Below the pieces are notes generated by a model. The model searched no databases. It was not told the origin of the DNA and saw only the letters and a program-made list of their open reading frames with translations. From a virus (Duplodnaviria > Heunggongvirae > Uroviricota > Caudoviricetes), in IMG/VR virus record IMGVR_UViG_2531839667_000012: a stretch of DNA of 32,021 nt. The stretch is one strand, 5' to 3'. A program made the translations under genes and the position numbers. Positions 1-15,880 of the stretch are shown one piece after another. The stretch's first letter is position 1; each line of letters opens with the position of its first letter.

Positions 1-1200
1 ATGCTGACCGATACCAAGCTGAAAAACCTCAAAGCGCGGGAAAAACTTTATAAAGTTGCAGACCGTGATGGGCTGTATGTAACCGTATCTCCCAAGGGAT
101 TGGTGACGTTTCGCTATGACTATCGAATCAATGGTCGTCGTGAAACGTTAACGATTGGTCGCTATGGTGACGGTATTTCTCTGGCGCAGGCGCGCGAAAA
201 ATTAGTGGAAGCTAAAAAACGCGTAAATGCAGGAATATCGCCCGCTGGAGAGAAGCGTGACGGTAAAACAAAGCGAAAAGAAGAAAAGACACTCCACGAT
301 TTTACCGTCAGCTACATGAAACACACCCGGCTGGCGGACAGCACAAGGGCGATGAAGCAAAGCATTATCGACAGAGACATCACCCCAGTATGGGGGCGCA
401 AGCTGCTGTCAGAGATAACCCCCTCTCTTCTACGTGAGTATTGCGACAAGATAAAAGCGCGTGGTGCGCCAGCGACAGCGATTCAGGTTCGCAATATCGT
501 TAGCGCGGTGTTTAAGTTCGCCGCGCTTCACGGCAACTATTACCCCAATCCTGCCGAAGAGGTTTTACCGGCTTCAATTGCGACATTCGAAGCGCGCGAC
601 AGAGCGCTCAAACCAGAAGAGATAGGCTGGTTTTTCAATCAGCTTGAACAAACGGGTACATTACCCACCATCAAGCTGGCCATTAAATTGGTTTTATTAA
701 CGATGGTGCGTAAAAGCGAACTGCTGAACGCGCCGTGGGGCGAGGTTAATTTTAATGCCTGCCTTTGGACGATTGACGCTAGCCGTATGAAGGGATCACG
801 GGATCATAATGTTTACCTGTCCCGGCAGGCGCAGGACATTCTGATTGCTCTAAAAATGTGCGCAGGAAGCAGTGATTGGGTTTTACCTTCATGCAATCAG
901 TCATCGCATAAGACCATGTCGGCGGCGACCTTAAACCGGGTCATTAATCTTACGGTTAAGCAGGCGCAGGAACGGGGGATCAGGCTGGCGTCGTTTTCCG
1001 TTCACGATATGCGCCGAACAGCATCGACGTTATTACATGAGGCTGGGTTTAATTCCGACTGGATAGAAAAATGCCTCGCGCACGAGGAAAGAAGCGTCAG
1101 AGCCGTTTATAACAAAGCGGAATACGCAGAACAGCGCCGCGACATGTTGCAGCAATGGGCGGATATGATTGATGGATGGATCAAGCAATACCGCCCGTGA
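1..1200 (+). CDS. int: Tyrosine site-specific integrase, P4/CP4-57 type (N-terminal arm-binding domain, HxxR box, C-terminal catalytic Tyr region)
   Basis: 399 aa ORF; N-terminus LTDTKLKNLK...GLYVTVSPKG typical of P4-family integrases; HDMRRTAST and AVYNKAEY motifs near the C-terminus. ATG is at window position 1, so the true start could lie upstream. Confidence 0.9.
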   Translation: MLTDTKLKNLKAREKLYKVADRDGLYVTVSPKGLVTFRYDYRINGRRETLTIGRYGDGISLAQAREKLVEAKKRVNAGISPAGEKRDGKTKRKEEKTLHDFTVSYMKHTRLADSTRAMKQSIIDRDITPVWGRKLLSEITPSLLREYCDKIKARGAPATAIQVRNIVSAVFKFAALHGNYYPNPAEEVLPASIATFEARDRALKPEEIGWFFNQLEQTGTLPTIKLAIKLVLLTMVRKSELLNAPWGEVNFNACLWTIDASRMKGSRDHNVYLSRQAQDILIALKMCAGSSDWVLPSCNQSSHKTMSAATLNRVINLTVKQAQERGIRLASFSVHDMRRTASTLLHEAGFNSDWIEKCLAHEERSVRAVYNKAEYAEQRRDMLQQWADMIDGWIKQYRP

Positions 1201-1828: not shown

Positions 1829-4483
1829 TTATCGTTGAAAAACCCAGCACTTCACCGTCGCCGGGCGGCGCGATGCGGCTGGGTAACGGCGGTTAAATTC
1901 GGCGTTAATGCCGCTGTTAACCGTTCTGACTTCAATAAACTTGTGGGTACGGCTGGTTTTTAGCACTCGCTTCAAATCGCTGACCGGCGGGATCTGCTGG
2001 CGGCGTTCGGTAGCCAGTTGAATAAAGTGGTTAAGGTTGACGGCGATAAGCTGTTCATCGCGCGAGTGGTTAAGCTGCGGTTCGTCGTCGCCATCGAGGA
2101 AGTCGAAAATATCCCAGAACTCCTGCACCAGAGGATGATCGGCGCTGATGGCCTGCTGGCGCTCCAGACTGAGGCGGATAAACATTTCTCTGGTTGCCTG
2201 TAGCTGCTCCTTCGTGACCGGAATAACCAGCGCCAGCGCGTCGAGCAGCGCCATAAGCTGGGCGTGGTTTTTAATGATGCGGATATGGCGAATATCGGGG
2301 TGGGCGTGAAGCTGCTGCTCGTATAGCGGGATCTGCCGGTTGACGCACTCCAGCACGGCCTGTTCCGCCAGCGCTGCCTTCAGCATAAAGCCGGAAAGCT
2401 GTTCCACCGGCAGGCGTTCGAGCTGCTCGGCAGCGACCTTGGTCTGAGTATTCTGGCCGCTGCGGTCGGTGTACAGGTGAATAATACGTTCCAGCACCGG
2501 GTTAGAGGCGCTGACGTCGGCGTTTTGCGCAATCACAATCGCGCCCCGGAACGGAGGTTCATAGGTCTCGTTACCGCTGTTACGCAGACCGCGAGACCGC
2601 ACTGACCGCCCGTTGTAGGCGGTTTTTAGCTCTTCCCAATCAAAGCCGCGTTGCTTTGCACCCTCCTGATTACGGTCACCCTCGATCAGCACCACCGGCA
2701 TGTTCGCCACCTGCGCAAAGTTGCGCGCGCGGGCGGCCAGCGTTGATTTAGACGGATCGAAACCTTCATAGTCGCGTCGGCCTAACAGCTTCCAGAGAAA
2801 CTCTATCAGCGTGGTTTTGCCGCTGCCGGGTTCGCCAACGATTTCCAGAAACGGAAAGCTCTTGTGCTTGTCGCGGATCTGTTCGGCAAACATCGTCCCA
2901 AACCAGAACGCCAGCGCCACAAAGCCCTTTGCGCCAAACGCCTGCCAGAGTAGCTGGGGCCACTGGCTGTCCATCTGTTTTAAATTGTTGTTCAGCGTCA
3001 GGCTGACCGACTGGTTCAGGCTTTTAAGGCTGAGTTTGCCCATGTCGAAGAAGTCTTCTTCGTTGAGTGTGTACAGCCGACCATCGCGAACGGCCAGATC
3101 GTTGAACACGTAAGCGCGGTATTCTTTGCTGTAGCCGATAAAATCAGTGGTCTGGACAGTTTTGATTTTGGGAAGCTGCTTGAGCAGCAACTTATCTAAC
3201 TGCTGACTGGTGCCGGTGAAGATGCCGCCCTGCGCGATATGCAGCAGGCGCTTTTTGAATTCTGAGCCGCTGGAAAGTTGGGAGCCGGTGAAGGTGTTTT
3301 TTATCGGCGGCGTGTCGTCCGGGAAGTTAATGCGAAAGTAATACCAGCTTTCGTCGGTAATGGTGTTGGCCTGATAGTAGAGGGCGGTCGGGTAGCAGTT
3401 GGCGATCTCCACCACGGCGGACGACTCTTTCAGCGCCTTCTGTTTCAGCTCTTCTTCGCTCAGGTCGTCATTGGAGAATGAGATGCTTTCATGCACCCGC
3501 ATATAGCGGTCAATATCCAGCTTGAACCAGAACAGGCGGCTGTCAAACTCGAAGTGGAACTCTTTACGCTCTGTCTGTTCGTGCATCAGCAGGGCTTTGG
3601 CGGCGGGAGAGGTGGCGATCAGCAGAGAGCCGTAGTAGCGGTATTTCTTCACCAGCTCCGGGTTAAGCCGGTCGCGCTGGTGCAAATCGTTCCAGTCCAG
3701 CTTGCTGCGGGAATGCGGCGTCTGTGCGGCGGCTGCGCTCCAGCCTTCGTCCCGGCTGCGCTTTACCCATCGCCGGGTATAGCTCATGCCCGCCTTGTCG
3801 TTATCCAGCGCCCAGACCAGTAAAGGGCGCTTTTTATCCACGAACAGCGCGGCCAGTTGACTTAACGCCTGCGCCGGATAGTTGTTGCAGGTCATCAGGG
3901 AAACGGCGGCGATGCCGTGGTGATGCAAGGCGATAGCGTCAAAAATGCCTTCAACCAGCCAGATCTCCTGTTGTTCCTCCAGTTTCAGCGTTGGCAATTG
4001 CCACCATAGCCCGCTGTAAGCGCCGTGAAAGTTGGCTTTGCGATCGCCGAAACGTTGTGGACGGTCAACGATCCGCTCCCACCACACGCCGTCAGCCAGC
4101 GGGAAACGTACCGTCGCTGAACCGATATCACGCCGTGGGTCGTAGTAGTTCTCTTGAGTGTAACAGTCACGGATCAGCGAAAGGTCAAAGCCGCGCATCT
4201 CGCGCAGGTAGGCATCGGCGGCGGCCTGTGGGTTTTCCGGGGTTGGGGGATATCTGTCTGACCAGCTTTCAAACAGATCCGGGTACATATCTTTGATGTG
4301 GATTTCGGCATTGCATTTATTCAGGCGACCGCAGCGCAATACCCACGGGCTGATGGCATTGGTGTACAGCTCTTTTTTCTGGCAGTCCGGGCAGATGCCC
4401 TGCCGCAGCCAGTCGCCCTGTTCTTTAAAGGAAAAGTCGGCCAGCAGTCGCCGCGTAATTTCCTGATGAAGTTGTGGTTGCAT
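1829..4483 (-). CDS. Primase-helicase (N-terminal zinc finger, DnaG-like toprim motifs, C-terminal P-loop NTPase), P4 alpha-like in function
   Basis: 884 aa ORF; CPDC...C cysteine cluster near N-terminus; LVEGIFDAIAL and WALDNDKAG toprim-like motifs; Walker A GEPGSGKTT; AAAGG SD about 8 nt upstream of the ATG at 4483. Confidence 0.85.
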   Translation of the reverse strand: MQPQLHQEITRRLLADFSFKEQGDWLRQGICPDCQKKELYTNAISPWVLRCGRLNKCNAEIHIKDMYPDLFESWSDRYPPTPENPQAAADAYLREMRGFDLSLIRDCYTQENYYDPRRDIGSATVRFPLADGVWWERIVDRPQRFGDRKANFHGAYSGLWWQLPTLKLEEQQEIWLVEGIFDAIALHHHGIAAVSLMTCNNYPAQALSQLAALFVDKKRPLLVWALDNDKAGMSYTRRWVKRSRDEGWSAAAAQTPHSRSKLDWNDLHQRDRLNPELVKKYRYYGSLLIATSPAAKALLMHEQTERKEFHFEFDSRLFWFKLDIDRYMRVHESISFSNDDLSEEELKQKALKESSAVVEIANCYPTALYYQANTITDESWYYFRINFPDDTPPIKNTFTGSQLSSGSEFKKRLLHIAQGGIFTGTSQQLDKLLLKQLPKIKTVQTTDFIGYSKEYRAYVFNDLAVRDGRLYTLNEEDFFDMGKLSLKSLNQSVSLTLNNNLKQMDSQWPQLLWQAFGAKGFVALAFWFGTMFAEQIRDKHKSFPFLEIVGEPGSGKTTLIEFLWKLLGRRDYEGFDPSKSTLAARARNFAQVANMPVVLIEGDRNQEGAKQRGFDWEELKTAYNGRSVRSRGLRNSGNETYEPPFRGAIVIAQNADVSASNPVLERIIHLYTDRSGQNTQTKVAAEQLERLPVEQLSGFMLKAALAEQAVLECVNRQIPLYEQQLHAHPDIRHIRIIKNHAQLMALLDALALVIPVTKEQLQATREMFIRLSLERQQAISADHPLVQEFWDIFDFLDGDDEPQLNHSRDEQLIAVNLNHFIQLATERRQQIPPVSDLKRVLKTSRTHKFIEVRTVNSGINAEFNRRYPAASRRPATVKCWVFQR

Positions 4484-5100: not shown

Positions 5101-5466
5101 ATGTCAACCGAGAAACAGGAAATATTTTACATTATTGGGGCTAGGTTGCGAGAAGAACGTGAGCGACTTGAGAAGAGCCAGAAATTTATGGCTGAGGCAC
5201 TTGGGGCGGATATCAAAACATGGAACAACTATGAGCGGGGGGCATCGGTGCCTGATGCTCATAAATTAACCATTATAGCGGCAGTGGGTGTAGACGTTCT
5301 GTATGTTCTGACTGGCAACCGCACGCCTGTAGTTACGTTGTCCAGTAAAGAGAGTGTGTTGGTCGAAAATTACCGTTCTGCTACGCCAGAACACCAGTCC
5401 ACCCTTGACACGGTTAGCGCTGCGCTTGCGCAACCGGGTGTAGGGAAGAAAGCTGGAGGGGCGTAA
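5101..5466 (+). CDS. XRE-family helix-turn-helix regulator (candidate immunity repressor / operon regulator)
   Basis: 121 aa; N-terminal IGARLREERERLEKSQKFMAEALGADIKTWNNYERG is an HTH_XRE/Cro-C1 pattern; AGGAAA upstream; stops 5 bp before the next gene. Confidence 0.8.
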   Translation: MSTEKQEIFYIIGARLREERERLEKSQKFMAEALGADIKTWNNYERGASVPDAHKLTIIAAVGVDVLYVLTGNRTPVVTLSSKESVLVENYRSATPEHQSTLDTVSAALAQPGVGKKAGGA

Positions 5467-5470
5467 TTTT

Positions 5471-5905
5471 ATGTTTAATACAGTATCTCTTATTATTGTT
5501 GTGATTTTGCTATGTGCTGTCGTTTCAGCTCTTATTACTCAGAAGAGAGAAAAGAAAAAAGGGAGCGTAGATAAAGTTAGTGATGAAATTTTACGTATCA
5601 GGTCTCTTGGGAAAAAACAACCGCTTTATTATTCTAACGCAACCACAAGATATGAAGAAATACCGCCGTCTGTTCAAAAAAATAGAAAAATTAATATACT
5701 GAAAATAGGAAAAGTAAAATATATCGCTTTCAGTTACATAGATAGTAAAGGTGATTTTACTCACCGTGAGGTGGATGTTTCATCTATAGATAATGAATAT
5801 TTACAAGGGTATTGCCACTTAGCTAAAGAGTATAGAACATTTCGCCTTGATAGGATTCAGGGGGATGTTATTTGTAGAGATACAGGGGAAGTTATTTTAA
5901 ATTAA
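5471..5905 (+). CDS. Membrane-anchored WYL-domain protein (N-terminal TM helix, C-terminal WYL-like ligand-binding domain)
   Basis: 144 aa; hydrophobic N-terminus VSLIIVVILLCAVVSALI followed by KREKKK; C-terminal YIAFSYIDSKGDFTHREVDVSSIDNEYLQGYCHLAKEYRTFRLDRIQ resembles the WYL signature; strongly AT-rich. Confidence 0.6.
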   Translation: MFNTVSLIIVVILLCAVVSALITQKREKKKGSVDKVSDEILRIRSLGKKQPLYYSNATTRYEEIPPSVQKNRKINILKIGKVKYIAFSYIDSKGDFTHREVDVSSIDNEYLQGYCHLAKEYRTFRLDRIQGDVICRDTGEVILN

Positions 5906-5929
5906 CGATAAATATTAAGTGAGGATGTT

Positions 5930-6331
5930 TTGAATACATATAATTTATTTATTAGTCATTCATGGAAATATAATGATACATATGAATCATTGGTACGTCT
6001 TTTAAAAGGAAGAGGATATTTTGATTTTAAAAATTACTCAGTACCAAGAATAGATCCTATCATTGGTGCTAATAGCCATTCAGCTTTATATTCAGCAATT
6101 CAAAATCAGATGCGACCGTCTCAGGTAGTTTTGATTTTAGCCGGTGTATATGCATCATATAGTACTTGGATTGATGCAGAAATAAGGATAGCCAAGGATT
6201 GGAAAAAGCCAATTATCGCTATTGAACCTTGGGGATCTGAGAGGACATCCAAGGTAGTAAAAGATGCAGCGAACAGAATTGTAAAATGGAACTCAGATAG
6301 TATTGTTAAAGCAATTAGAGAGTTGGCATAA
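5930..6331 (+). CDS. Minimal TIR-like domain protein (predicted NAD+-processing signal generator)
   Basis: 133 aa; begins LFISHSWKY (TIR betaA-like) and contains YASYSTWIDAEI, resembling the TIR SxWxxxE catalytic-glutamate motif; TTG start with GAGGA upstream; AT-rich. Confidence 0.6.
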   Translation: MNTYNLFISHSWKYNDTYESLVRLLKGRGYFDFKNYSVPRIDPIIGANSHSALYSAIQNQMRPSQVVLILAGVYASYSTWIDAEIRIAKDWKKPIIAIEPWGSERTSKVVKDAANRIVKWNSDSIVKAIRELA

Positions 6332-6341
6332 GGATTAACTG

Positions 6342-7307
6342 ATGAGAAAGGCTCTGTTTGTTGGGATTAATGAATATGCGGAAATTTCTCATCTTGCGGG
6401 ATGTGAAAATGATGCTATGAAGATGTCTGCGGCATTGTCCAGACATGCGGATGGGCGTCCTAATTTTGAAGGGAAAGATTTGATTCACCGTGAGCAGATG
6501 CCTGTAACTAAGGTATTGCTTGAGCAAGAAATTCAGACTTTATTCAGTGGTTCAGCAGATATAGCTTTATTATTCTTTGCTGGGCATGGGTATTTTGATG
6601 AAAATATAGATGAAGGGGTTATCATTCCTCATGATTACTCTTCTCATCAAAGCAATGGTGTGAGAATCAGTGATATCATGCTATGGGCATCGAGAGCAAC
6701 CAATATTAAAAATAAAATAATAATACTAGATTGCTGTCAGGCGGGCGCTGCCGGACAAGTCAGGAACTTAAGAGGTGGAGACTCCATTCTTGCTGATGGC
6801 ACAACAATATTAACCGCATGTCAGCGTGATGAATATGCGCAAGAGCAGGATGGTCAGGGTATTTTTACAGCCTTAATGTTGGAGGCTTTATATGGCGCAG
6901 GTGCTAATATATTGGGGCATGTAACACCCGGTAGTTTGTATAGCTTTGTTGACCAAGCATTAGGTGCATGGGAGCAGCGACCGGTATTTAAAACAAATGT
7001 ATCCAGATTCGTAGTGCTAAGAGAAGTCGGGCCAAGAATCCCGTTAGAAACATTAAGGCAATTACCTGATTGGTTTGCTAGTGGTAGTGCTGAATATCCT
7101 CTTGATCCTAGTTACGAGCCTGATTCAGGAGCACCAAATGAGGATAATGTAAGGATATTTCGGCAATTACAAGCCTGTAATCGTCATGGCCTTGTTGAAC
7201 CTGTTAACGCAGAACATATGTATTATGCAGCGATGAATTCAACTGCATGTAGATTGACCGCTTTGGGAGCCTATTATAGAAAACTGGCAGAGAAAAGGCG
7301 TTTTTGA
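6342..7307 (+). CDS. Caspase-like protease (peptidase C14 / metacaspase-like His-Cys dyad) with C-terminal domain of unknown function
   Basis: 321 aa; KALFVGINEY start, FFAGHGYF (His-Gly) and IILDCCQAGAAG (catalytic Cys) in caspase order and spacing; AAGGA SD 7 nt upstream; AT-rich. Confidence 0.8.
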   Translation: MRKALFVGINEYAEISHLAGCENDAMKMSAALSRHADGRPNFEGKDLIHREQMPVTKVLLEQEIQTLFSGSADIALLFFAGHGYFDENIDEGVIIPHDYSSHQSNGVRISDIMLWASRATNIKNKIIILDCCQAGAAGQVRNLRGGDSILADGTTILTACQRDEYAQEQDGQGIFTALMLEALYGAGANILGHVTPGSLYSFVDQALGAWEQRPVFKTNVSRFVVLREVGPRIPLETLRQLPDWFASGSAEYPLDPSYEPDSGAPNEDNVRIFRQLQACNRHGLVEPVNAEHMYYAAMNSTACRLTALGAYYRKLAEKRRF

Positions 7308-7332: not shown

Positions 7333-8436
7333 TCAATCCAGCCCTAGCTCACACTCCACCGCCGTCCCATACCCACTGCTGTTATCCAACGTATGCACGC
7401 ACCGCGTAATCACCCACGCGGTGCCGTCAATCTCCGCCTTAAACCCCTTCACCTGCACCGACAGTTCCGGGAACAAATCGGGCCGTCCGCGCGCAAGATT
7501 CAGGCTGAACGTTGCCGCGCCGCGCTGTAGCTGCTCCCACGCGCTTTTTGCCGCTCTGTAGGCGTTATTTTTGTTGGCATAGGTGTGGCGCAGCACCTTG
7601 ATATTTCCCTCTTCGCCAACCATCACGTTATCAGCATTGAATGAGGCGTCTGACGGCGGTGATTCTGTTGGTTGCGTTTGTGGACGGTTTTTCCGTGTCT
7701 TGCGCTTCATGTCAGTGGACTGCTTTTTTGCCTGCCGTGTATCCAGCCAGTAGGCCGTCACACCGGTATACGCCTCCCTGTCCGCGATGCTGAACCGGTG
7801 GCTGTCGCCGTCCTCGCGGGTAATGGTTGCGACCGGCAGCGGTTTGCCGCTGGCACTTTTACCGGAACCTGTCGGCATTAGCAGCAGAGCATCATTTTTC
7901 ACGCAGGCGATAGCGCCGTGCAGTTGCGCCAGCCGGGTCAGGAAGGAGGCATCGGATTCGTTAGTCTGGTCAACGTGCTCAATGGCGATCCCAGCCAGCT
8001 CGCCGCTGACGGTTGATTCCAGCTTATGACGCGCCGCCACGGTTTGCACAATCGCGCCCAGCGTCACATCATGGTAGCTCTGTTCCCGTTTAACGTTCAG
8101 CGAATCGCGGAAATCGGCGCTGCGGGCGCGGAGGCTGAGTACGTCCGGTGCGCCGCTGTGCTCCAGTTCGTCCACTGTGAAGACATTCTGGTGCATCACG
8201 CCGTCACCCTTCCAGCCCAGAGAAACCGTTAGCTTTTCGCCCTTTGCCGGAAACGCCAGCAGGCCGTCGCTGTCGTCCAGTTCGAGCTGCAGTTCGTCGG
8301 CCTCAAAGCCCCGGTTGTCGGTGATACGCAGGCTGATTAAGCGGTTGTCCAGATTCCGCGTAATGTCCTTACCGTTCAGCACCACGCTGTACTCCGGCTG
8401 CGGCTGGGCGTTTAAGAGTGCGTTTAACATCGTCAT
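7333..8436 (-). CDS. D: P2 gpD-like tail protein (late control gene D)
   Basis: 367 aa, sequence and position (after U, before ogr) match P2 gene D. Confidence 0.85.
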   Translation of the reverse strand: MTMLNALLNAQPQPEYSVVLNGKDITRNLDNRLISLRITDNRGFEADELQLELDDSDGLLAFPAKGEKLTVSLGWKGDGVMHQNVFTVDELEHSGAPDVLSLRARSADFRDSLNVKREQSYHDVTLGAIVQTVAARHKLESTVSGELAGIAIEHVDQTNESDASFLTRLAQLHGAIACVKNDALLLMPTGSGKSASGKPLPVATITREDGDSHRFSIADREAYTGVTAYWLDTRQAKKQSTDMKRKTRKNRPQTQPTESPPSDASFNADNVMVGEEGNIKVLRHTYANKNNAYRAAKSAWEQLQRGAATFSLNLARGRPDLFPELSVQVKGFKAEIDGTAWVITRCVHTLDNSSGYGTAVECELGLD

Positions 8437-8861
8437 AGTCCGTCTACCATCGTGATGATGTCGCCCAGCAAGCCACCCAGCTTCGGCGGATCGACACGTT
8501 TTAACGCCAGCGTAAACTCAATGCGCCGGGCCGCACCGTCGCGAAAAAAGACGCTCCGGGTGACGTTCAGACTCTCAATCACAAACCAGCCATGCAGCGA
8601 TCCGGTGCCTTCAATCAGCGGCCAAGCCATCCCCTGATCGGCCATCTTTCGCAGGAAAAACAGGGTAAATCGCCCGCCGGTCAGTTCCGGCAACAGCACG
8701 CCGTTTAGCGTAATGGTTTCGTCACCCACGCCGATAAACTGGCTGGCCGGACGTAGCCCCACGCGGGAACTGGCAGGATGCCGCCACGCTACGGCGTGCT
8801 GCATATCCTGATAGGGCAGGGTTTTCAGGCTGAAGACGAACAGCCCCAGTACCATCATCAT
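8433..8861 (-). CDS. U: P2 gpU-like tail protein
   Basis: Start taken at ATG ATG ATG (8861) preceded by AAGGAGG that overlaps the T stop; the longer ORF in the track overlaps T and is unlikely. Confidence 0.85.
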   Translation of the reverse strand: MMMVLGLFVFSLKTLPYQDMQHAVAWRHPASSRVGLRPASQFIGVGDETITLNGVLLPELTGGRFTLFFLRKMADQGMAWPLIEGTGSLHGWFVIESLNVTRSVFFRDGAARRIEFTLALKRVDPPKLGGLLGDIITMVDGL

Positions 8862-8871
8862 AAGAGCCTCC

Positions 8872-11721
8872 TTAATCAATATCGCGCAGGCTGCTGCGGG
8901 TTCTGGCGGCATTCTGCCGTTCGCGCTTGTCCAGTTCCTGCGCCACCAGTTTCGCCAGTTGTTGTTCATTCATGCCGGGAGCAGCGTGGATGTGAATAGT
9001 GACAGGCCCGCCGCTGGCTGCCGGTGCAGAAAGGGATGCTGGCGCGAGCGGGGCGCGATTATCCGGCAGGGCGGCGATAGGGGGCATGGCGACAGCGGCG
9101 GCGCTGAGCGTCAGCCCGGCACCGGCGGCGATTAACTGCTTCGAAAGTTGCCCTACGCTGGCCAGCGCCGTTTGCGTGTTGCCCTCAATCCCGACCGCCA
9201 GCCCGTCCACGGTATAGCGGCCCATTTCGGCGAATACCCGCGACGGTGAGTGAATACCGAGCTTGTCCTTGAACCAGTTGGAAATATTGCTGCCCAGATC
9301 CAGCACGCCCTGCTTAATCGCTTCCCATTTGTCGAAGATCCCCTGTTTCAGCCCTTCCATGATATTGCCGCCGATCTCGGTAAAGCGGGTGGACAGGTTA
9401 CTGAAACTGTTCAGAACGTTATCCCAGACTGTGGTAAACACCGTGGACAGGTTCCAGTTGGTGAAAAAAGCAATGATGGAGTTCAGGGCGGTGCTGACGG
9501 TGGTTTTAATTCCCTCCCAGACGCCAGTGGCGGTAGTGGTAATGCCGCTCCAGATTTGCCCCAGAAATGCCACCACGCTGTTCCACGCCTCAACGGTCGT
9601 CGCTTTGATAGTATCCCAGTGCTGGTAAATCAGACCGGGCAGCGTCCAGTTCAGCAGGATATTCACCAGCCCGTCCCAGCAGCCGAAGAGAAACGTTTTA
9701 ATCCCTTCCCAGACGGCGCTGGTTGTGGCTTTTACGCTGTTCCACGCATCGCTGCATACCTGCTTAAAACTATTCCAGAGCGCGGCGAACTTCGGCCCCA
9801 GCCAGTCCCAGTTACTCCAGATCCAGATGGCGGCACCGGCGATCAGCGCAATCACCGCCAGAATCGGGTTAGCCATCATTGCGCGACCCAGCCAAATTAC
9901 CGCTTTTCCCGTGCCTTTAAAGGCATTCGCCAGCAGCCCCAGCGCGCTGCCGCCCTTAATACCGAGCACCGACAGGCTGAGTTTTAGCGCCGCCATCGGG
10001 GCGAGGATACCGGCCAGCGTCAGGGATATGCCACCGAGCGCTACGGCGAACGCGCCGATCGCCATGCCGATTTTCACCAGCGTGGCGGTTAGCTGCGGGT
10101 TGGCCTTCATCCATGCGCCGATGGACTGTAAAACGCCGGTCATACGTTGGGTAATGCTGCGCAACGGGCTGTCTACCGATTCGAACATCTCAATACCGAG
10201 ATCTTCCCACGCTGAGTCAAGATTCTGGAGATCCCCCTTCATATTATCGGCCATCGTTTTGGCAACTTTGCCAGCGGTACCGAGGGAGGCTTTCACCTGT
10301 TCGGCATAGGCTTCAATGCGCTGCGACGGATCGAGTGACGCCTGTTTGTCGAGCAGTTCCATCATAGCGGAGGAGGCTTCCACGCCGAAAATATCCTTGA
10401 TGTAGGACATTTTCTTCACGTTGCCGACACCGCCGATCCCTTGCTTCTCAAATGCGGCGGAGATTTCTGCCAGTAGCTGCGGCATCTCTTTCATTTTCCC
10501 GGTGCTGTCTGCCACCGAGACTTTCAGATCTTCCAGCGCGGCGGCGGCTTTTTTCGGCTGTGATGCCAGCCGCAACAGCGCCATACGTAAGGATGTACCT
10601 GCCTGCGATCCCTGAATCCCTACGTTGCCCAGCATCCCGACCATTGCTGACATGGTTTCAAAATCCTGCCCTGCCGCCTGCGCAGCCGGGCCAACGTATT
10701 TCATGGTTTCACCCAGCATCTGCAGGTCGGTATTAGACGTAGTGAACGTGAAAGTCAGCGCGTCAGCCATGCGTTGCATCTGGTCTGCCGGGATTTTATA
10801 GGCGCTCTGGATGTTGGAGGCGATATCGGAAACCTGTGCCAATTGCGTATCCATCCCCGCCGCTTTCGCTAGATCCAGCATGTGCGGCATCGCCTTTTCG
10901 ATTTTGTCAGGCGAATAACCTGCCATTGCCAGAAAGCCTTGCCCCTGCGCTACGTCGTTAGCGGTGAAGCTGGTTGATGCGCCCAGCTCGCGTGATTGCA
11001 CCCGCAACCGCTTCAGTTCGTCAGAATTTTTATCGGTACGGGTTAGCGCCTGTACGCGCGACATGCCCACGTCGAAATCGTAGCCGGGCATCATTACCCG
11101 CGCGCTGCCGTAAAGCATACCCACGCCGGTGGCCGTCGTGGTTGCGCCGAATCCGGCCAGTTTGTTGCGGGCGTCCATTGCTCCTGCGTAGCTATTTTTT
11201 GCAGAGTTCATCCGCTGCTGCTGCCGGTTTAGCCGTTCCAGTCGCCTGCGCTGTTCCTCCATGCTACGGTTAGCACTCTCCAGTCGTTGCCGTAGTTCAC
11301 TCTGGCGCTGGCTGAGATTACGGGTATCGATACCAGCGTTGCGCAGTACGGTGCGGCTACGCTGCTGGGCTTGAGTAAGCTGACCATGCCGTTCTTTAAG
11401 TCGCCGCGCCTCCTGCTGAGCACGTTCAAACTCCCGACGCATCGCTGCCGTGGGCGCAGTGCTGCTTTGCATTGCCGTGGCCAGCGCCCGGACGCGATCC
11501 TGCGCGCTATTAAGCTGGTTGCCGGTGACGGCGACATCGCGCGCCAGCTTGCGGTAGCCATCGATTTGTCCGGCCTGTTTGTTCAGGTCTTTGACCTGCT
11601 GCTGCGCCGCTTTCAGCGCTCTGGCGGTGTCGCTACTGCTTTGCGTGACGGCTTTTAGCGGGCGGGTGATTTTATCTACGGCGCTGAGTAGTACCTGTAA
11701 ACGAAGGTTTTGTGTGCTCAT
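8872..11721 (-). CDS. T: Tail tape measure protein (P2 gpT-like)
   Basis: 949 aa; coiled-coil-rich N-terminus, Gly/Ala-rich hydrophobic central segment; start ATG overlaps E' stop (ATGA). Confidence 0.9.
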   Translation of the reverse strand: MSTQNLRLQVLLSAVDKITRPLKAVTQSSSDTARALKAAQQQVKDLNKQAGQIDGYRKLARDVAVTGNQLNSAQDRVRALATAMQSSTAPTAAMRREFERAQQEARRLKERHGQLTQAQQRSRTVLRNAGIDTRNLSQRQSELRQRLESANRSMEEQRRRLERLNRQQQRMNSAKNSYAGAMDARNKLAGFGATTTATGVGMLYGSARVMMPGYDFDVGMSRVQALTRTDKNSDELKRLRVQSRELGASTSFTANDVAQGQGFLAMAGYSPDKIEKAMPHMLDLAKAAGMDTQLAQVSDIASNIQSAYKIPADQMQRMADALTFTFTTSNTDLQMLGETMKYVGPAAQAAGQDFETMSAMVGMLGNVGIQGSQAGTSLRMALLRLASQPKKAAAALEDLKVSVADSTGKMKEMPQLLAEISAAFEKQGIGGVGNVKKMSYIKDIFGVEASSAMMELLDKQASLDPSQRIEAYAEQVKASLGTAGKVAKTMADNMKGDLQNLDSAWEDLGIEMFESVDSPLRSITQRMTGVLQSIGAWMKANPQLTATLVKIGMAIGAFAVALGGISLTLAGILAPMAALKLSLSVLGIKGGSALGLLANAFKGTGKAVIWLGRAMMANPILAVIALIAGAAIWIWSNWDWLGPKFAALWNSFKQVCSDAWNSVKATTSAVWEGIKTFLFGCWDGLVNILLNWTLPGLIYQHWDTIKATTVEAWNSVVAFLGQIWSGITTTATGVWEGIKTTVSTALNSIIAFFTNWNLSTVFTTVWDNVLNSFSNLSTRFTEIGGNIMEGLKQGIFDKWEAIKQGVLDLGSNISNWFKDKLGIHSPSRVFAEMGRYTVDGLAVGIEGNTQTALASVGQLSKQLIAAGAGLTLSAAAVAMPPIAALPDNRAPLAPASLSAPAASGGPVTIHIHAAPGMNEQQLAKLVAQELDKRERQNAARTRSSLRDID

Positions 11722-12139
11722 GATTCAACACCGCTGCGCTGGCGGGCCTGCTCCCGCCAGTAAAGGGTTTCGCCAAGGGTTAATGCGTCCATCGCGGATA
11801 GCGGCCAATGGAAGATGACGGCTATGTCGCCTTGAGCATCCTCTATGCGTCCGGGGTATCCGCTGCTTCCGGCGAGGTCTGAGGCAAAAAACCGACAAGC
11901 GCCGTACCGAAGGCTGTCAGGTCGATAAAATCCAGTTGCGCCACCTCATGCTTATTCAGCGGCGGTGCGGTGATGCGCGGCAGAACGTTGGTGAGTGCAT
12001 CTACGTTAAGGCTTAACAGCTCCACCAGACTGACACCGCGCAGGTCGCCGCCCAGCGGTTTACGGATCTGGAACTCGACAAATTCGGTTTCACCGCGTTT
12101 CAGGGGAGTATTCAGGGTAACGGTTTTACGTTCGCTCAT
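11718..12139 (-). CDS. E': E+E' fusion produced by programmed -1 ribosomal frameshift at T_TTT_TTG (minus-strand heptamer at 11885-11891)
   Basis: In-frame codons GGT TTT TTG give the slippery heptamer; hand translation of the -1 frame continues about 57 codons to a TGA at 11718-11720 overlapping the T start codon, giving a fusion of about 141 aa as in P2. Confidence 0.75.
11843..12139 (-). CDS. E: Tail assembly chaperone E (P2 gpE-like)
   Basis: 98 aa ORF directly upstream of T, downstream of FII. Confidence 0.85.
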   Translation of the reverse strand: MSERKTVTLNTPLKRGETEFVEFQIRKPLGGDLRGVSLVELLSLNVDALTNVLPRITAPPLNKHEVAQLDFIDLTAFGTALVGFLPQTSPEAADTPDA

Positions 12140-12148
12140 GGTTCATCC

Positions 12149-12664
12149 TTACAGGCCAATGGCGCGACGTGCGCCAGCCAGACGGTCTTTGCCGTCGATA
12201 TTTTCAATAAAGTTCACGGTGTCGATTTCGACGATGGTTTCACCGTTGACGCTCTCTTTGTAATAGGTACAAAGGGTGCTGATTTTGGTGGCGGAGTTCT
12301 CGCCCTGCTTGTATTCGCCGCGATCCAGCTCTTTGTGGCGACCACGCACCACGATTTCCACTGCGTCGTACTCTTCGCTGTCTTCACGCTGGATAGCGCC
12401 GGAGAATCGCAGCATCACGCCGCTGATCTTCGTCCAGCCGATCTGCCGCAGCACCAGCAGCTCATAGCCGCCGATTGACCATTCCACGCTGAGCGCCTCG
12501 TCATCCAGCCCCAGATCGACATGCGCTGCGCCGTTCATGCCGCCGCCACGATAGGCTTCCAGCTTGCGCGTCAGCTTTGCCGGAGTGAAGGACTCCACCT
12601 GCGCCAGATAGATATCGCCCTCGTTAAACAGGTTGAGGTATTTCAGTTTGCTGGGTAGTGCCAT
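12149..12664 (-). CDS. FII: Tail tube protein (P2 gpFII-like)
   Basis: 171 aa; position and sequence consistent with P2 FII. Confidence 0.85.
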   Translation of the reverse strand: MALPSKLKYLNLFNEGDIYLAQVESFTPAKLTRKLEAYRGGGMNGAAHVDLGLDDEALSVEWSIGGYELLVLRQIGWTKISGVMLRFSGAIQREDSEEYDAVEIVVRGRHKELDRGEYKQGENSATKISTLCTYYKESVNGETIVEIDTVNFIENIDGKDRLAGARRAIGL

Positions 12665-12678
12665 GGTGCGTTCTCCTG

Positions 12679-13857
12679 TTACACGGTGGTGGCGATGGAT
12701 TCAGCCAGATTGACCAGATAGCGGTCAGTGATACGCTGGCGGAACATCAGGTTTTCCAGCGGCGGCACCGGGGTGTAGTCGTAGTCGATATACGCTTTAC
12801 CCGCTTTCAGGATGTCCGGCGTGTTGGCGGCGGGATCGAACCATGCGGAACCATCGACGATGTAGCCGTTGCCTTTCAGTTCGCGGAATTTGGCGTTCAC
12901 GCCTTCGATAATGTCGCGGAACAGAGAAGCGTGTTGCGGTTTATCTACCGCCCAGAAGTGGGCGTCGGCGATGGTATCCGCCAGCACCTGCGCGGTGCGG
13001 GTGTAGTTCTCAAAGGCAAACAGCGGATCGGTGCTGCAGGTGCGCGATCCCCAGAAGCGATAGCCGCCGTTGCAAATCAGCGTGGTGACGTCGTGGCTGT
13101 TGAGGTAATCGGAGTCGGTGGCGGTGGACTGGAGATCCCAGAATACGCTGCGGGAAATGCCGGTCACGCCGTTGACGTCAACGTTGGACAGCGTTTTATG
13201 CCAGCCGATTTCTTCATCAATTTTTGCACGCAGGCCCACGGCGCGGGCGGTGGCGTATAGGGTGCGTTCGGCAGCAGCCTGCGTATCAAAGCCGACAAAA
13301 TCCGGCCAGATAATCATCGCCTCCCGCGCACCGAGCTGATCGCGATACAGCACTGCCTCTTCTTTGGTCTGCGCGCCGAACGCCGACAGATAGCTGAAGG
13401 CGCGAAGCTGTTGTGAAATGCTGACCAGTTCGGTGGCGACGGGCAGAGAATCCAGCCCCGGTACCGCCAGAATGCGCGGTTTTATTTTCAGTTTGGTTTG
13501 CGAGTCCAGCAGTGCCTTCATGCCGGTGTATTTCCCGGCTGGCGTGCTGCCGCCGATGATATTGGCGGTGGTTTCGGCAGCGGAGTCACCTTCGGCTACG
13601 CGCACGGCGACCACCACCGGCTGCGTCTGGTCGGCGATGGCATCCAGAGAGTGCGCCAGCGTACCGCTATCACCGGCTTTACCCAGCGCAGATCGCACGT
13701 CGGTTAACAGTACCGGGGTATCAAGGGGAAAGGTTTTTTCATCGGCGTCTGATCCGGTGCAGACGATGCCGATCACGGCGGTGGAGATGGTACGGATCGG
13801 GCGTACGCCTTCATTGATTTCAATAACGCGCGCGCCGTGGTGGTAGTCGGTTGCCAT
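12679..13857 (-). CDS. FI: Contractile tail sheath protein (P2 gpFI-like)
   Basis: Start chosen at ATG 13857 (MATDYHHG...) with GGAGG 9 nt upstream; 393 aa. Confidence 0.9.
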   Translation of the reverse strand: MATDYHHGARVIEINEGVRPIRTISTAVIGIVCTGSDADEKTFPLDTPVLLTDVRSALGKAGDSGTLAHSLDAIADQTQPVVVAVRVAEGDSAAETTANIIGGSTPAGKYTGMKALLDSQTKLKIKPRILAVPGLDSLPVATELVSISQQLRAFSYLSAFGAQTKEEAVLYRDQLGAREAMIIWPDFVGFDTQAAAERTLYATARAVGLRAKIDEEIGWHKTLSNVDVNGVTGISRSVFWDLQSTATDSDYLNSHDVTTLICNGGYRFWGSRTCSTDPLFAFENYTRTAQVLADTIADAHFWAVDKPQHASLFRDIIEGVNAKFRELKGNGYIVDGSAWFDPAANTPDILKAGKAYIDYDYTPVPPLENLMFRQRITDRYLVNLAESIATTV

Positions 13858-13962: not shown

Positions 13963-14721
13963 TTAATTCAGGATAATCAATTCTGATGTGGCGCTGGCTG
14001 GCTTTCCACCTACGGTATAGCGAATCCCTACCGTTGAGAATGTCAGGCCGTGGAAGATATCGCGCATTTCCGGGATGTCGTTAACCGAGATAATCATCCG
14101 GCCCTGCATGGTGCGCGCCAGCTCTGCCATACGCTGGTACTGCTCAAGGCCAAATGGTACGCCGTAGCCTTCGGTTTTCCAGTATGGAGGGTCGCAGTAG
14201 AACAGGGTATGCGGGCGGTCATAGCGGCGAATACAGTCGGCCCAGTCCAGATTTTCAATGCAGACGCGCGCCAGCCGCAGATGGGCGGCGGATAAATCCT
14301 CTTCCATACGCAGCAGGTTCAGGCGCGGCGGTGAGGTGGTAGCGGTACCGAACGTGCGGCTTTCCACTTTGCCGCCGAATGCCAGCTTTTGCAGATAGTA
14401 GAAGCGCGCCGCGCGCTGGATATCGGTCAGCGTTTCTTCCGGGGTGATCTGGAGCCAGCGGTACATTTCGCGGCTGACCAGCGACCATTTAAACTGGCGG
14501 ACAAACTCTTCTAAATGGTGCTGAAGTACGCGGTAGAGGTTGGTAACGTCACCGTTGATATCATTCAGCACCTCGGCCTGTGCGGGCTGTTTCATAAAGA
14601 ACAACGCCGCCGCCCCGCAGAACGGTTCAACGTAGCAGCGGTGTTTGGGAAACAGTGGCAGAATGTGTTTTGCCAGCCTGCGCTTACCGCCGATCCACGG
14701 AATAACGGGTAACGTATTCAT
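13963..14721 (-). CDS. dam: DNA adenine N6-methyltransferase, Dam/D12 class
   Basis: 252 aa; motif I EPFCGAAALFF and motif IV FYCDPPYW; located between tail-fibre assembly gene G and FI. Confidence 0.85.
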   Translation of the reverse strand: MNTLPVIPWIGGKRRLAKHILPLFPKHRCYVEPFCGAAALFFMKQPAQAEVLNDINGDVTNLYRVLQHHLEEFVRQFKWSLVSREMYRWLQITPEETLTDIQRAARFYYLQKLAFGGKVESRTFGTATTSPPRLNLLRMEEDLSAAHLRLARVCIENLDWADCIRRYDRPHTLFYCDPPYWKTEGYGVPFGLEQYQRMAELARTMQGRMIISVNDIPEMRDIFHGLTFSTVGIRYTVGGKPASATSELIILN

Positions 14722-15185
14722 ATTGTCAATTTTCCAGACCGACTGCTGACCAACGCATACAGCAGATTAGGAGACCAGCGCCAACTATCGCGCAGGTGCA
14801 GAAATTCGGCGCAGAACTCGCTGCAAAACAGGCGTTCCTGTTTACCCTGACTGAGTAACACAAAACCCATGGCGCCCAGCCAGTCGTAACCTTTATCGTC
14901 GTGCTGACGAAAAAAGGTTTCCAGTGCCAGCGGATCGGCGTTGATCGGGAGTAAATCCCATTTCTCAATCGGCAGCGGCATTCTCTTGCTGCGCACGCCT
15001 TTATCCCGTACCGATGATGAGTAACAGATAAACAGGCCATCCGGCAGGCGTTCGACCAGTTCGCAGTGAGAGTAAGGGCCGCGCGTGACCTGTCGCGTCA
15101 ACCAGTCGGAGAGCCGGGCAAGGCTGAAAAAGCGTTCAGCCCGGCCACGGTAGAACGCCATGTAAACCTGACTCATGGTTGCCAT
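14718..15185 (-). CDS. Hypothetical protein (moron), translationally coupled between G and dam
   Basis: 155 aa ORF overlapping the G stop by 13 nt and the dam start by 4 nt; no motif recognised. Confidence 0.5.
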   Translation of the reverse strand: MATMSQVYMAFYRGRAERFFSLARLSDWLTRQVTRGPYSHCELVERLPDGLFICYSSSVRDKGVRSKRMPLPIEKWDLLPINADPLALETFFRQHDDKGYDWLGAMGFVLLSQGKQERLFCSEFCAEFLHLRDSWRWSPNLLYALVSSRSGKLTI

Positions 15186-15880
15186 CCTGACGAGTAGTCG
15201 TAACCCATAACCGCCTGCACCTCCGTCAATGCTTCAACGGCGGCAATATGCTGCTGGGCAGCGGCGAACAGGCGCATATCGTGCGCCATTGTTTCGGTTT
15301 CAAACCGGGCGGCGATTTCGTTGGTCAGTTCAATCAGGTTGTGATTTTTGGTCTGCCACATTAAGCCTGCCGGTATTTGTTTAGCCACGCCCATTTTGGT
15401 GAGCGAGAGCTGCTGGATGCGGCTGTTAGCGTCGCTGTGGAAATGGTGATTATCGATGATGATGTAGTCGGCGGTGATTCGATCGCGATACTGCTTTATT
15501 TCCGCCACCTTTGCCTGTCGGGCTTTTTCGATATCAGGCCGCCAGCGTTTGCCGTCCCAACGGACAAAGGCGTTATCGGGCTTCAGCAGAGTGACGTTAT
15601 CCGGCAATGGCCCCAGATGATGAAGCTGTACCTCACTGCCCGCATCGGTATCAAACGCGGTTTTACCGCGATGATCTTCTACCGCAAGCCATGTTTCTCC
15701 GTTGAATGTCAGGGCAAAGCCGCTCTGGCATTCGGGCGGTTCGATAGTGGTACAGCATTCCGGTAAGCCGGTGTTGGGGGCGATATAGGCGTCGCTGACG
15801 CCGATAAATTCCTGAGTATCTGCCGCGTAGTTAAAGATGCGCAGGGTTTGCGGTTCGTCGGAAAATGCGAATGTGCTCAT
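15173..15880 (-). CDS. G: Tail fibre assembly chaperone (P2 gpG-like)
   Basis: 235 aa directly downstream of the tail fibre gene, overlapping its stop; conserved N-terminal region of Tfa proteins. Confidence 0.8.

Follow-up and report, generated by a model that had tools for sequence, protein, structure and literature searches.

It is known that in the FETUD tail operon of phage P2 (NC_001895, P2p25/P2p26), a −1 shift at the sequence TTTTTTG leads to two products, i.e., the 91-aa E and the 142-aa E+E′ (PMC3091744, citing Christie 2002 and Xu 2004), both of which are labelled "essential tail protein" in the P2 record. The P2-like Burkholderia phages keep TTTTTTG without a downstream hairpin; as an example, in KS5, KS14, and KL3, none is predicted up to 60 nt downstream of it, a prediction made from sequence only, as the one presented here (PMC3091744). 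These phages belong to another host group, and their identity to the fusion protein described below is about 45%, KS14 being matched in two frames in a tblastn search. A second described class is that of lambda G/GT (Levin 1993; Xu, Hendrix, and Duda 2004, 2013, 2014; in PMC5009743), in which two ORFs overlap in the interval separating the major tail/tube gene from the tape-measure gene and give a short product and a scarce −1 fusion, with a ratio of 30:1 in the model reported in PMC5009743. Lambda uses another slippery sequence and is a siphovirus, whereas the locus analysed here lies in a contractile-tail context, and no similarity to the lambda G/T sequences emerged from the searches made here.

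The whole stretch of DNA under investigation (hereinafter, the window) consists of 32,021 nucleotides of a virus belonging to Caudoviricetes (IMG/VR record IMGVR_UViG_2531839667_000012). Its tail genes show the same order as those of P2 (FI-FII-E/E′-T-U-D), and both overlapping ORFs lie between the tail tube gene and the tape-measure gene, with FII, E, E′, and T on one strand (Table 1), which is the position they have in the lambda class; a short product accompanied by a scarce −1 fusion is predicted here by analogy. Judging from sequence comparison, the site is very probably the orthologue of the P2 E/E+E′ programmed −1 frameshift, in a P2-like (Peduoviridae-type) prophage. Each of the genes FI, FII, E/E′, T, U, and D is open and matches its family, and the RefSeq relatives of T are annotated as "phage tail tape measure protein". 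On the minus strand, no terminator-like or promoter-like site was found between the genes from FII to D, the sole match of this kind (13037..13020) being located within FI.

Table 1. Features of the E/E′ region and of its flanking genes (positions refer to the window).
Feature	Position	Strand	Evidence or remark
Gene FII homologue, tail tube protein, 171 aa, directly preceding E	12149..12664	minus	PF04985 Phage_tube, 184.9 bits
Gene E homologue, tail assembly chaperone, 98 aa, standard-decoding product	12139..11843	minus	ORF list and translation
Slippery heptamer T_TTT_TTG	11891..11885	minus	E zero frame GG(T TTT TTG), codons 83-85
Dual-coding overlap, last 13 E sense codons (PQTSPEAADTPDA) and first 13 E′ codons	11846..11884	minus	
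E stop TAG	11845..11843	minus	
E′, predicted −1 frame extension, 55 sense codons and TGA	11718..11885	minus	Translation
E′ stop TGA	11720..11718	minus	
ATGA, E′ stop TGA sharing bases with the T start ATG	11718..11721	minus	
Gene T homologue, tail tape measure protein, 949 aa	8872..11721	minus	PF10145 PhageMin_Tail, 161 bits

The sequence-only reading had placed a T_TTT_TTG heptamer in the zero frame of E as GGT TTT TTG, and had let the −1 frame run to a TGA overlapping the T start codon as ATGA; both assignments were confirmed from the sequence. Machine translation of the −1 frame from 11885 to 11718 disclosed no early stop after the heptamer, the frame consisting of 55 sense codons (ASDLAGSSGYPGRIEDAQGDIAVIFHWPLSAMDALTLGETLYWREQARQRSGVES) followed by the stop; the length of about 57 codons previously attributed to it is correct if the two codons of the heptamer are counted, and 55 otherwise. 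The heptamer lies 13 codons ahead of the E stop. In the E+E′ reading, base 11885 (G) is decoded two times, the residues at the junction are GTALVGFL followed by ASDLAGSSGYPGR, and the fusion is 140 aa long, against the 98 aa of E.

Both parts of the putative fusion belong to families that are common to P2 and the window. Protein E matches PF10109 Phage_TAC_7 (43.3 bits, cut-off 25) and PHROG 103, "tail protein" (113 bits), while the −1 extension matches PF06528 Phage_P2_GpE (54.7 bits, cut-off 23), with a match limited to its last 35 residues, as well as PHROGs 1756 and 6416. The BLASTP alignment of the fusion with P2 E+E′ shows 45% identity over 139 residues (E = 4e-41) and is unbroken through the junction. 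Moreover, the slip context GTC GGT TTT TTG is P2's own, where the −1 frameshift is annotated, and it is found at the same codon position (VGFL) and with the same direction of shift. No matches for E, E′, or the fusion were found in NCBIfam, and the PDB sequence search gave no relative with a solved structure. The two loci differ in some details: the −1 extension has 55 codons here and 57 in P2; E continues past the heptamer for 13 codons here and for 6 in P2, the dual-coding stretch being about twice as long; and the E′ stop, which overlaps the T start also in P2, does so by 8 nt in that phage (ATGAGTAA) and by the 4 nt of ATGA in the window. The ORF existing in the +1 frame (11898..11725, 57 aa) was also considered as a gene and was discarded; it has no family match, and stops appear in it in the relatives.

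The conservation of the site was evaluated on 129 relatives, which represent an unbiased sample, as they were chosen through the neighbouring tube gene (FII). All the 128 relatives with an unfused E harbor NNT TTT TTN in register, including two loci that end before the E′ stop, and the last base of the heptamer is G in 105 of them, A in 22, and T in one; in the one remaining locus (L002), the run counts seven T's and the frames are fused. In each of the 126 loci readable to the −1 stop, the extension is 54–59 codons long, and the FHW...WR...RSG motif is present in E′ wherever tabulated. The same NNT TTT TTN pattern occurs in all 24 clusters obtained at up to 85% amino acid identity. The phenylalanine of the slip site is encoded by TTT in 24/24 clusters (background 57%), the leucine by TTR in 23/24 (background 18%), and the glycine always by GGT (n = 16, background 27%), although the clusters are mutually related, and the probabilities of these synonymous sites are therefore indicative only. 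Hence, both the slip site and the −1 ORF are kept in the relatives beyond what the protein sequence demands, with synonymous alternatives left unused.

The distribution of substitutions between the window and its relatives changes along the region: before the site they fall on E-frame third positions, and past the E stop on −1-frame third positions. In L004, the counts by codon position are 5/3/13 before the site and 3/20/4 after the E stop, with 20 of the latter 27 on −1 third positions, and the remaining two frames gain stops in the relatives. The dual-coding stretch is less substituted in close relatives (in L004, 3 changes in 39 nt, versus 27 in 122 nt of the E′-only part). The overlap between the E′ stop and the T start ranges from 1 to 11 nt in all of the 23 relative clusters, being of 8 nt in 17, 4 nt (ATGA) in three, 11 nt in two, and 1 nt in one; the earlier statement that the extension ends exactly at the T start holds for the ATGA of the window, one among several variants of a geometry common to the family. 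Overall, the P2-type tail-chaperone frameshift suggested by that reading is supported by the Pfam matches, the identity to P2, the switch of periodicity, and the invariance of the slip site.

A stimulatory stem-loop downstream of the heptamer, for which a search had been suggested, was not found by single-sequence folds, RNAalifold, or Rfam. The single-sequence folds of the downstream region were no better than those of shuffled sequences (z = −0.54 for 95 nt and +0.96 for 55 nt); RNAalifold gave zero pairs on 16 diverse relatives and, on the six members of the close clade, a weak structure in which the heptamer itself is paired, no compensatory changes occur, and the covariation term is positive. 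The only Rfam match, GA-cis, lies within E and scores 17.5 bits (gathering score 34.7), i.e., it is a sub-threshold chance match. A long-range GCGGAUA/UAUCCGC stem of the window was rejected, being disrupted in L004 and L016. Similarly, there is no SD-like element just upstream of the slip site, where P2 has AAGGTGG adjoining the site and the window has GCGCTTGTCGG; such an upstream stimulator is not conserved. The elements that characterise stimulator-dependent −1 PRF of the dnaX or IS911 type (a hairpin or pseudoknot 5–9 nt on the 3′ side and/or an SD-like element 6–17 nt on the 5′ side) were not found in this search, which covered the folds, covariation, Rfam, and the sequence preceding the site. 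In P2 itself, a hairpin of 10 bp lies about 50 nt past the site (z = −3.1), which the clade of the window does not have, and neither P2 nor the window has a canonical 3′ stimulator near the site. As regards the heptamer, U_UUU_UUG is not among the motifs used for the gene-family search in the text of Sharma et al. that was available (PMC4066793), which were selected for frameshifting above 0.10% without a stimulator and for under-representation in genes; it is also missing from the most efficient E. coli motifs given there, and that text provides no figure for it. Since no stimulator was detected, the frequency of frameshifting at this site may be very low.

Taken alone, the raw features of the sequence would be weak evidence, since the number of heptamers and the open frame are both within chance and the +1 frame is open as well: the window contains 7 copies of the heptamer (6.8 expected, with no enrichment), and the probability that the −1 frame stays open for 55 codons or more from a given point is about 0.06 in its genes. 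These figures would suit a chance heptamer in GC-rich DNA, followed by an off-frame that happens to be open, without any recoding. However, such an accident is hardly conceivable and is already refuted by the family matches of the −1 frame, the periodicity switch, and the invariance of the site over 24 divergent clusters. In addition, ten in-frame X_XXY_YYZ heptamers exist in ten major genes of the window, and the E site is the only one followed by a long −1 ORF (55 codons versus 27 at most) and the only one located within 16 codons of the 3′ end of its own gene. Homology and comparative data place the arrangement far beyond chance.

The annotation of close E. coli relatives suggests a different organization, in which E′ is a separate small gene with a start of its own: RefSeq/PGAP reports two proteins, one named "phage tail assembly protein" and the other, of 42 aa, named "GpE family phage tail protein", the latter starting from ATA and overlapping the E stop (as an example, in L001 the two CDSs are E, 3562..3858, and E′, 3855..3983). 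The restriction of the PF06528 match to the last 35 residues is in agreement with this organization, but ATA is a non-canonical initiator, and the first ATG, GTG, or TTG that the −1 frame offers after its upstream stop is the ATG at 11792, which lies 3′ of the conserved DIAVIFHWP motif. Furthermore, the −1 frame of the relatives is open as far back as the heptamer, whose synonymous sites are fixed, two features that a free-standing gene would not need, and the homology with P2 E+E′ is continuous through the junction, which makes a separate E′ very improbable. Somewhat less remote, and still quite improbable, is transcriptional slippage, in which the RNA polymerase would lengthen the U6 run by one U, and the resulting U7 mRNA would yield E+E′ by standard translation. 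The site is indeed a homopolymer run and one extra U is equivalent to a −1 shift; in E. coli GMF054, seven T's recorded at the DNA level allow E+E′ to be read as a single 140-aa ORF, and it is annotated as such, and eight T's are present in another relative (L020). Nevertheless, according to PMC5009743, efficient slippage of the bacterial polymerase is known for runs of about nine A or T, and T5C5 gives none without a special context, whereas the run is of exactly six T's in 127 of the 129 relatives, without the lengthening that selection for slippage would favour; it is always bounded on its 3′ side by G or A at the Z position of a canonical X_XXY_YYZ, and the P2 site is annotated and reported as a translational frameshift (RefSeq record; PMC3091744).

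With a programmed −1 frameshift as in P2, most ribosomes on gene E would read GGT TTT TTG normally and stop 13 codons further on, releasing the 98-aa E. Some of them would slip back by one base at T_TTT_TTG, the tRNA-Phe (on UUU) and the tRNA-Leu (on UUG) each re-pairing with a UUU triplet, and the slipped ribosome would then re-read G11885 and translate 55 more codons in the −1 frame, producing the 140-aa E+E′. The frequency of slipping would be low, and the heptamer alone might set the rate, as suggested by the lack of an RNA structure or an SD-like stimulator. If the roles proposed for lambda gpG/gpGT, in which the common domain acts on the tape measure and the extension on the tube protein, can be carried over to E/E′, the N-terminal domain common to E and E+E′ would coat the tape measure protein T, and the E′ domain would recruit the tube protein FII. 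With domain roles as in lambda, both products would be needed for tail assembly, in a fixed low ratio. The production of E+E′, its ratio to E, and its need in tail assembly are what we infer from these comparisons.

It might also be imagined that in the clade of the window the translation of T is coupled to the frameshift, an idea that we consider unlikely. In its favour, the ATGA is common to the T ATG and the E′ stop, ribosomes in the zero frame terminate 122 nt before the T start, and T has no recognisable Shine-Dalgarno sequence, the ΔG of the upstream SD duplex being −9.3 for FI, −7.4 for FII, −5.9 for E (SD-like AAGGA), and −3.0, equal to the background mean, for T. An extension of this idea to the whole family was rejected; a T gene without SD, and possibly coupled to E′, occurs only in the window clade, L048/L037, P2, and L119, and most relatives have a moderate GGAG-type SD embedded in the conserved R-S-G codons. 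If frameshifted ribosomes did reinitiate at T, the amounts of tape measure protein and of E+E′ would be tied to each other.

These data add nothing new to the biology of recoding, and their main value concerns annotation, as the frameshift would give the right pair of products, i.e., E (98 aa) and E+E′ (140 aa). The intactness of the site had previously been taken as an argument for a functional tail module; the genes are open and uninterrupted, but the argument is weak, this being a necessary and not a sufficient condition. The intact site is compatible with a working tail module, without proving one, and is one among several things that the prophage needs in order to build a tail. As for the family, the unbiased sample of 129 relatives shows that, in a lineage without a detectable stimulator, T_TTT_TTR is rigidly kept.

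Machine translation of the minus strand confirmed that the heptamer T_TTT_TTG is read in the frame of the tail assembly chaperone gene E as GGT TTT TTG, and that the -1 frame, entered at G11885, runs without any early stop for 55 sense codons (ASDLAGSSGYPGRIEDAQGDIAVIFHWPLSAMDALTLGETLYWREQARQRSGVES) up to a TGA overlapping the start of the tape measure gene T. The sequence-only reading had counted about 57 codons, which holds if both codons of the heptamer are included and is otherwise 55. It was right in recognising a tail-chaperone frameshift of the P2 type, as witnessed by the family matches of E and of its extension E' (reported in the table), a slip site identical to that of P2 and its conservation in relatives. 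The entire window is a P2-like prophage, containing an integrase, a Toprim replication protein, tail, baseplate and fibre genes, a P2-family capsid protein and a terminase. Between FII and D, the minus strand has no promoter-like or terminator-like site, the sole match on this strand being inside FI. The intact FI-FII-E/E'-T-U-D genes are compatible with the functional tail module previously proposed, this function being a prediction. Downstream, the start of D overlaps the stop of U as ATGA (8433..8436, minus strand). The listed U ORF (178 aa, from 8969, minus strand) overlaps the end of T; since in RefSeq relatives U starts 10 nt past the T stop, corresponding to about 8861 in the window (region 8861..8874, minus strand; 142 aa), translation of U probably does not begin at the start of the longer ORF.

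Features of the window bearing on the frameshift site and on the prophage cargo
Feature	Coordinates	Strand	Remarks
FII, tail tube protein, upstream neighbour of E			184.9 bits
E ORF, ATG start	12139..11843	-	98 aa, MSERKTV...FLPQTSPEAADTPDA; Pfam Phage_TAC_7, 43.3 bits (cut-off 25)
Slip heptamer TTTTTTG	11891..11885	-	E codons 83-85 (GGT TTT TTG), register X_XXY_YYZ
-1 extension by itself	11885..11718	-	Pfam Phage_P2_GpE, 54.7 bits (cut-off 23); PHROGs 1756 and 6416
+1 ORF (third frame relative to E)	11725..11898	-	57 codons open, same stretch
PGAP E' CDS of E. coli 24A16CRGN010 (L001 3855..3983)	11846..11718		42 aa, ATA start overlapping E stop
E' stop TGA	11720..11718	-	ATGA overlap with ATG (11721) of 949-aa ORF
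Tape measure (T), ORF downstream of E'			PhageMin_Tail, 161 bits
Genes after T			gpU and gpD homologues
Cassette protein	within 5101..7307	+	121 aa, weak RmrA match
Cassette WYL-domain protein	5471..5905	+	
Cassette TIR-like ThsB-type protein	5930..6331	+	PADLOC 44 bits
Cassette caspase-like Peptidase_C14 protein	6342..7307	+	Pfam 55 bits; PADLOC 'caspase' 63 bits
D12-class DNA adenine methylase	14721..13963	-	Pfam 101.9 bits
Two small genes beside methylase	15185..14718 and 15880..15173	-	235-aa one is DUF4376 in relatives' annotation

The RefSeq record of phage P2 annotates E (91 aa), a joined CDS E+E' and a 'site of -1 translational frameshift'. Window and P2 share GTC GGT TTT TTG at this site, and the conceptual fusion of the window (140 aa) is 45% identical to the P2 E+E' (142 aa; E = 4e-41), the alignment being unbroken at the junction (VGFL/A in the window, VGFL/V in P2). 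They differ in the length of E past the heptamer (13 codons versus 6 in P2), in the overlap between E' stop and T start (4 nt versus 8 nt), and in two elements of P2 that the window clade lacks, an SD-like AAGGTGG immediately upstream of the site and, about 50 nt downstream, a strong hairpin (z = -3.1). This hairpin (10 bp, CUGAUGGCGG...CCGCCAUCAG, 735..778 of the P2 locus L003, across the codons for LMAD...PPSE) is too distant from the slip site for a canonical stimulator. It was not called by RNAalifold in a mixed set of relatives; P2-like complementary segments were also seen by eye in the relative loci L018, L019, L042, L040, L012, and L036, but not in the window clade.

The relatives are an unbiased sample, picked via the neighbouring tube gene rather than via E; three scans (9 genome loci, 38 and 80 viral contig loci) and four annotated loci yielded an E homologue reaching the C-terminus in 129/131 loci. 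All the 128 relatives with an unfused E harbor NNT TTT TTN in the E frame, ending in G (105), A (22), or T (1). The T_TTT_TTA variant occurs in 22 loci (L019, L076, L123, and L071 among them) belonging to 3 clusters, and T_TTT_TTT lies inside a run of eight T's in L020 (3355..3361). The extension is 54-59 codons long in the 126 loci readable to the E' stop, the slip site being present also in the two loci cut off before it, and every tabulated extension contains the motif ADIAxIFHW...L..W R...RSG. When the loci are grouped into 24 clusters at <=85% amino acid identity (identity to the window of 32-49%, the clade of the window itself excepted), the Phe codon is TTT in 24/24 (background 57%), the Leu codon is TTR in 23/24 (background 18%, CTG being usual), and the codon before them has T as its third base in 24/24, with Gly encoded by GGT in 16/16 (background 27%). 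The naive synonymous-site probabilities, from 1e-6 to 1e-17, are indicative only, since the clusters are phylogenetically related.

Substitutions relative to the window, counted by E-frame codon position (1/2/3), were 5/3/13 upstream of the heptamer and 3/20/4 downstream of the E stop in Edwardsiella ictaluri (L004), and 11/4/35 and 3/21/6 in a further relative (L005). Since position 2 of the E frame corresponds to position 3 in the -1 frame, the constraint shifts to the latter past the E stop. The -1 translation is also the least altered (9/55 residues, versus 22/54 and 21/54 in the other frames), and the other frames gain stops in relatives. The +1 ORF (11898..11725), without family match in Pfam and PHROG profile searches and broken by stops in relatives, was rejected as a gene and is to be regarded as a chance ORF.

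Taken singly, the raw features of the site are no more than what chance would give: the window has 7 copies of TTTTTTG versus 6.8 expected, the probability that the -1 frame of its genes remains open over 55 codons or more past any given position is about 0.06, and the +1 frame is open at this site too. Their combination gives a different picture, as among the 10 in-frame X_XXY_YYZ heptamers of ten major genes only that of E lies where its gene ends, and only that of E precedes a long -1 ORF (55 codons, versus at most 27 for the rest). Together with the comparative evidence, this makes a fortuitous arrangement hardly credible. It is very probable, instead, that ribosomal -1 tandem slippage at T_TTT_TTG yields both products, a slipping ribosome making E+E' and a non-slipping one E. 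By analogy with lambda G/GT, the domain common to the two proteins would bind the tape measure, and E' would recruit the tube protein.

Transcriptional slippage at the T run would yield the same fusion protein, as shown by the DNA variant of E. coli GMF054 (L002, NZ_CM183924.1), in which seven T's (2311..2318) replace the usual six and join E and E' into one 140-aa ORF. However, efficient RNA polymerase slippage has been described for runs of about nine (PMC5009743), whereas here the run is kept at exactly six and followed by a fixed purine (with the exception of seven in L002 and eight in L020), which makes this origin improbable. In GMF054 the fused ORF is annotated as 'GpE family phage tail protein'; as no pseudogenes are annotated in the surrounding 49 kb, the assembly is not obviously error-ridden, and the seventh T may be a real mutation, which would abolish free E, or else a sequencing error in the homopolymer. 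An independent initiation of E' is even less probable. RefSeq/PGAP does give E' a CDS of its own in close E. coli relatives (42 aa, from a non-canonical ATA), an annotation artefact due to slippage not being modelled; yet, past the upstream stop, the -1 frame offers its first ATG/GTG/TTG only at 11792, an ATG from which merely a 24-aa peptide devoid of DIAVIFHWP would be made.

As for stimulators of ribosomal slippage, no downstream stem-loop was found, the explicit search covering structures other than pseudoknots: the stretches of 55 and 95 nt that follow the heptamer are no more stably folded than shuffled sequences (z = +0.96 and -0.54), RNAalifold gave zero pairs in 16 diverse relatives and zero compensatory changes in the close clade, and an Rfam search returned nothing. 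A hairpin was likewise not found in P2 or P2-like Burkholderia phages, according to PMC3091744, citing Xu et al. 2004. In the work of Sharma et al. (PMC4066793), U_UUU_UUG is absent both from the motifs chosen for >0.10% stimulator-free frameshifting and under-representation in genes, and from the most efficient E. coli motifs; hence, a low slip frequency is expected, which would fit the low fusion:chaperone ratio of lambda, about 1:30 (PMC5009743).

In all the clusters examined, the stop of E' and the start of T share bases: 8 nt in 17 clusters, 4 nt in three, 11 nt in two, and a single nt in one. The ATGA junction of the window, previously read as E' ending exactly at T, is therefore one variant of a conserved geometry. 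The T gene of the window has no recognisable SD (duplex dG -3.0, equal to the background mean, versus -9.3, -7.4, and -5.9 upstream of FI, FII, and E), so that T might be partly fed by ribosomes terminating E+E'; since most relatives carry GGAG inside the conserved R-S-G codons (dG -5.6 to -6.6), this coupling is kept as a low-probability speculation only.

The prophage tail region is found at 94-98% identity in only 4 of the 5426 complete E. coli genomes, and in GMF054 it adjoins guaA. One IMG/VR contig (L013/L051), with the same slip site and -1 extension, matches the window at 100% identity throughout the FII protein and up to residue 85 of E. At the position of the variable cargo of P2-like phages, between the early region and gene D, the window bears a four-gene cassette (5101..7307, plus strand) that looks like a TIR and caspase anti-phage defence system; the related GMF054 prophage has there a DUF6037 protein, a nucleoid-associated protein, and a hypothetical protein. 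An insertion of three further genes, including the methylase, separates the tail-fibre genes from the sheath gene FI (13963..15880, minus strand); P2 is not known to have genes at this position.

On the whole, the observation is genuine, was correctly interpreted and is ordinary: the site adds one more member, mis-annotated at present, to the P2 E/E+E' family of programmed frameshifts.
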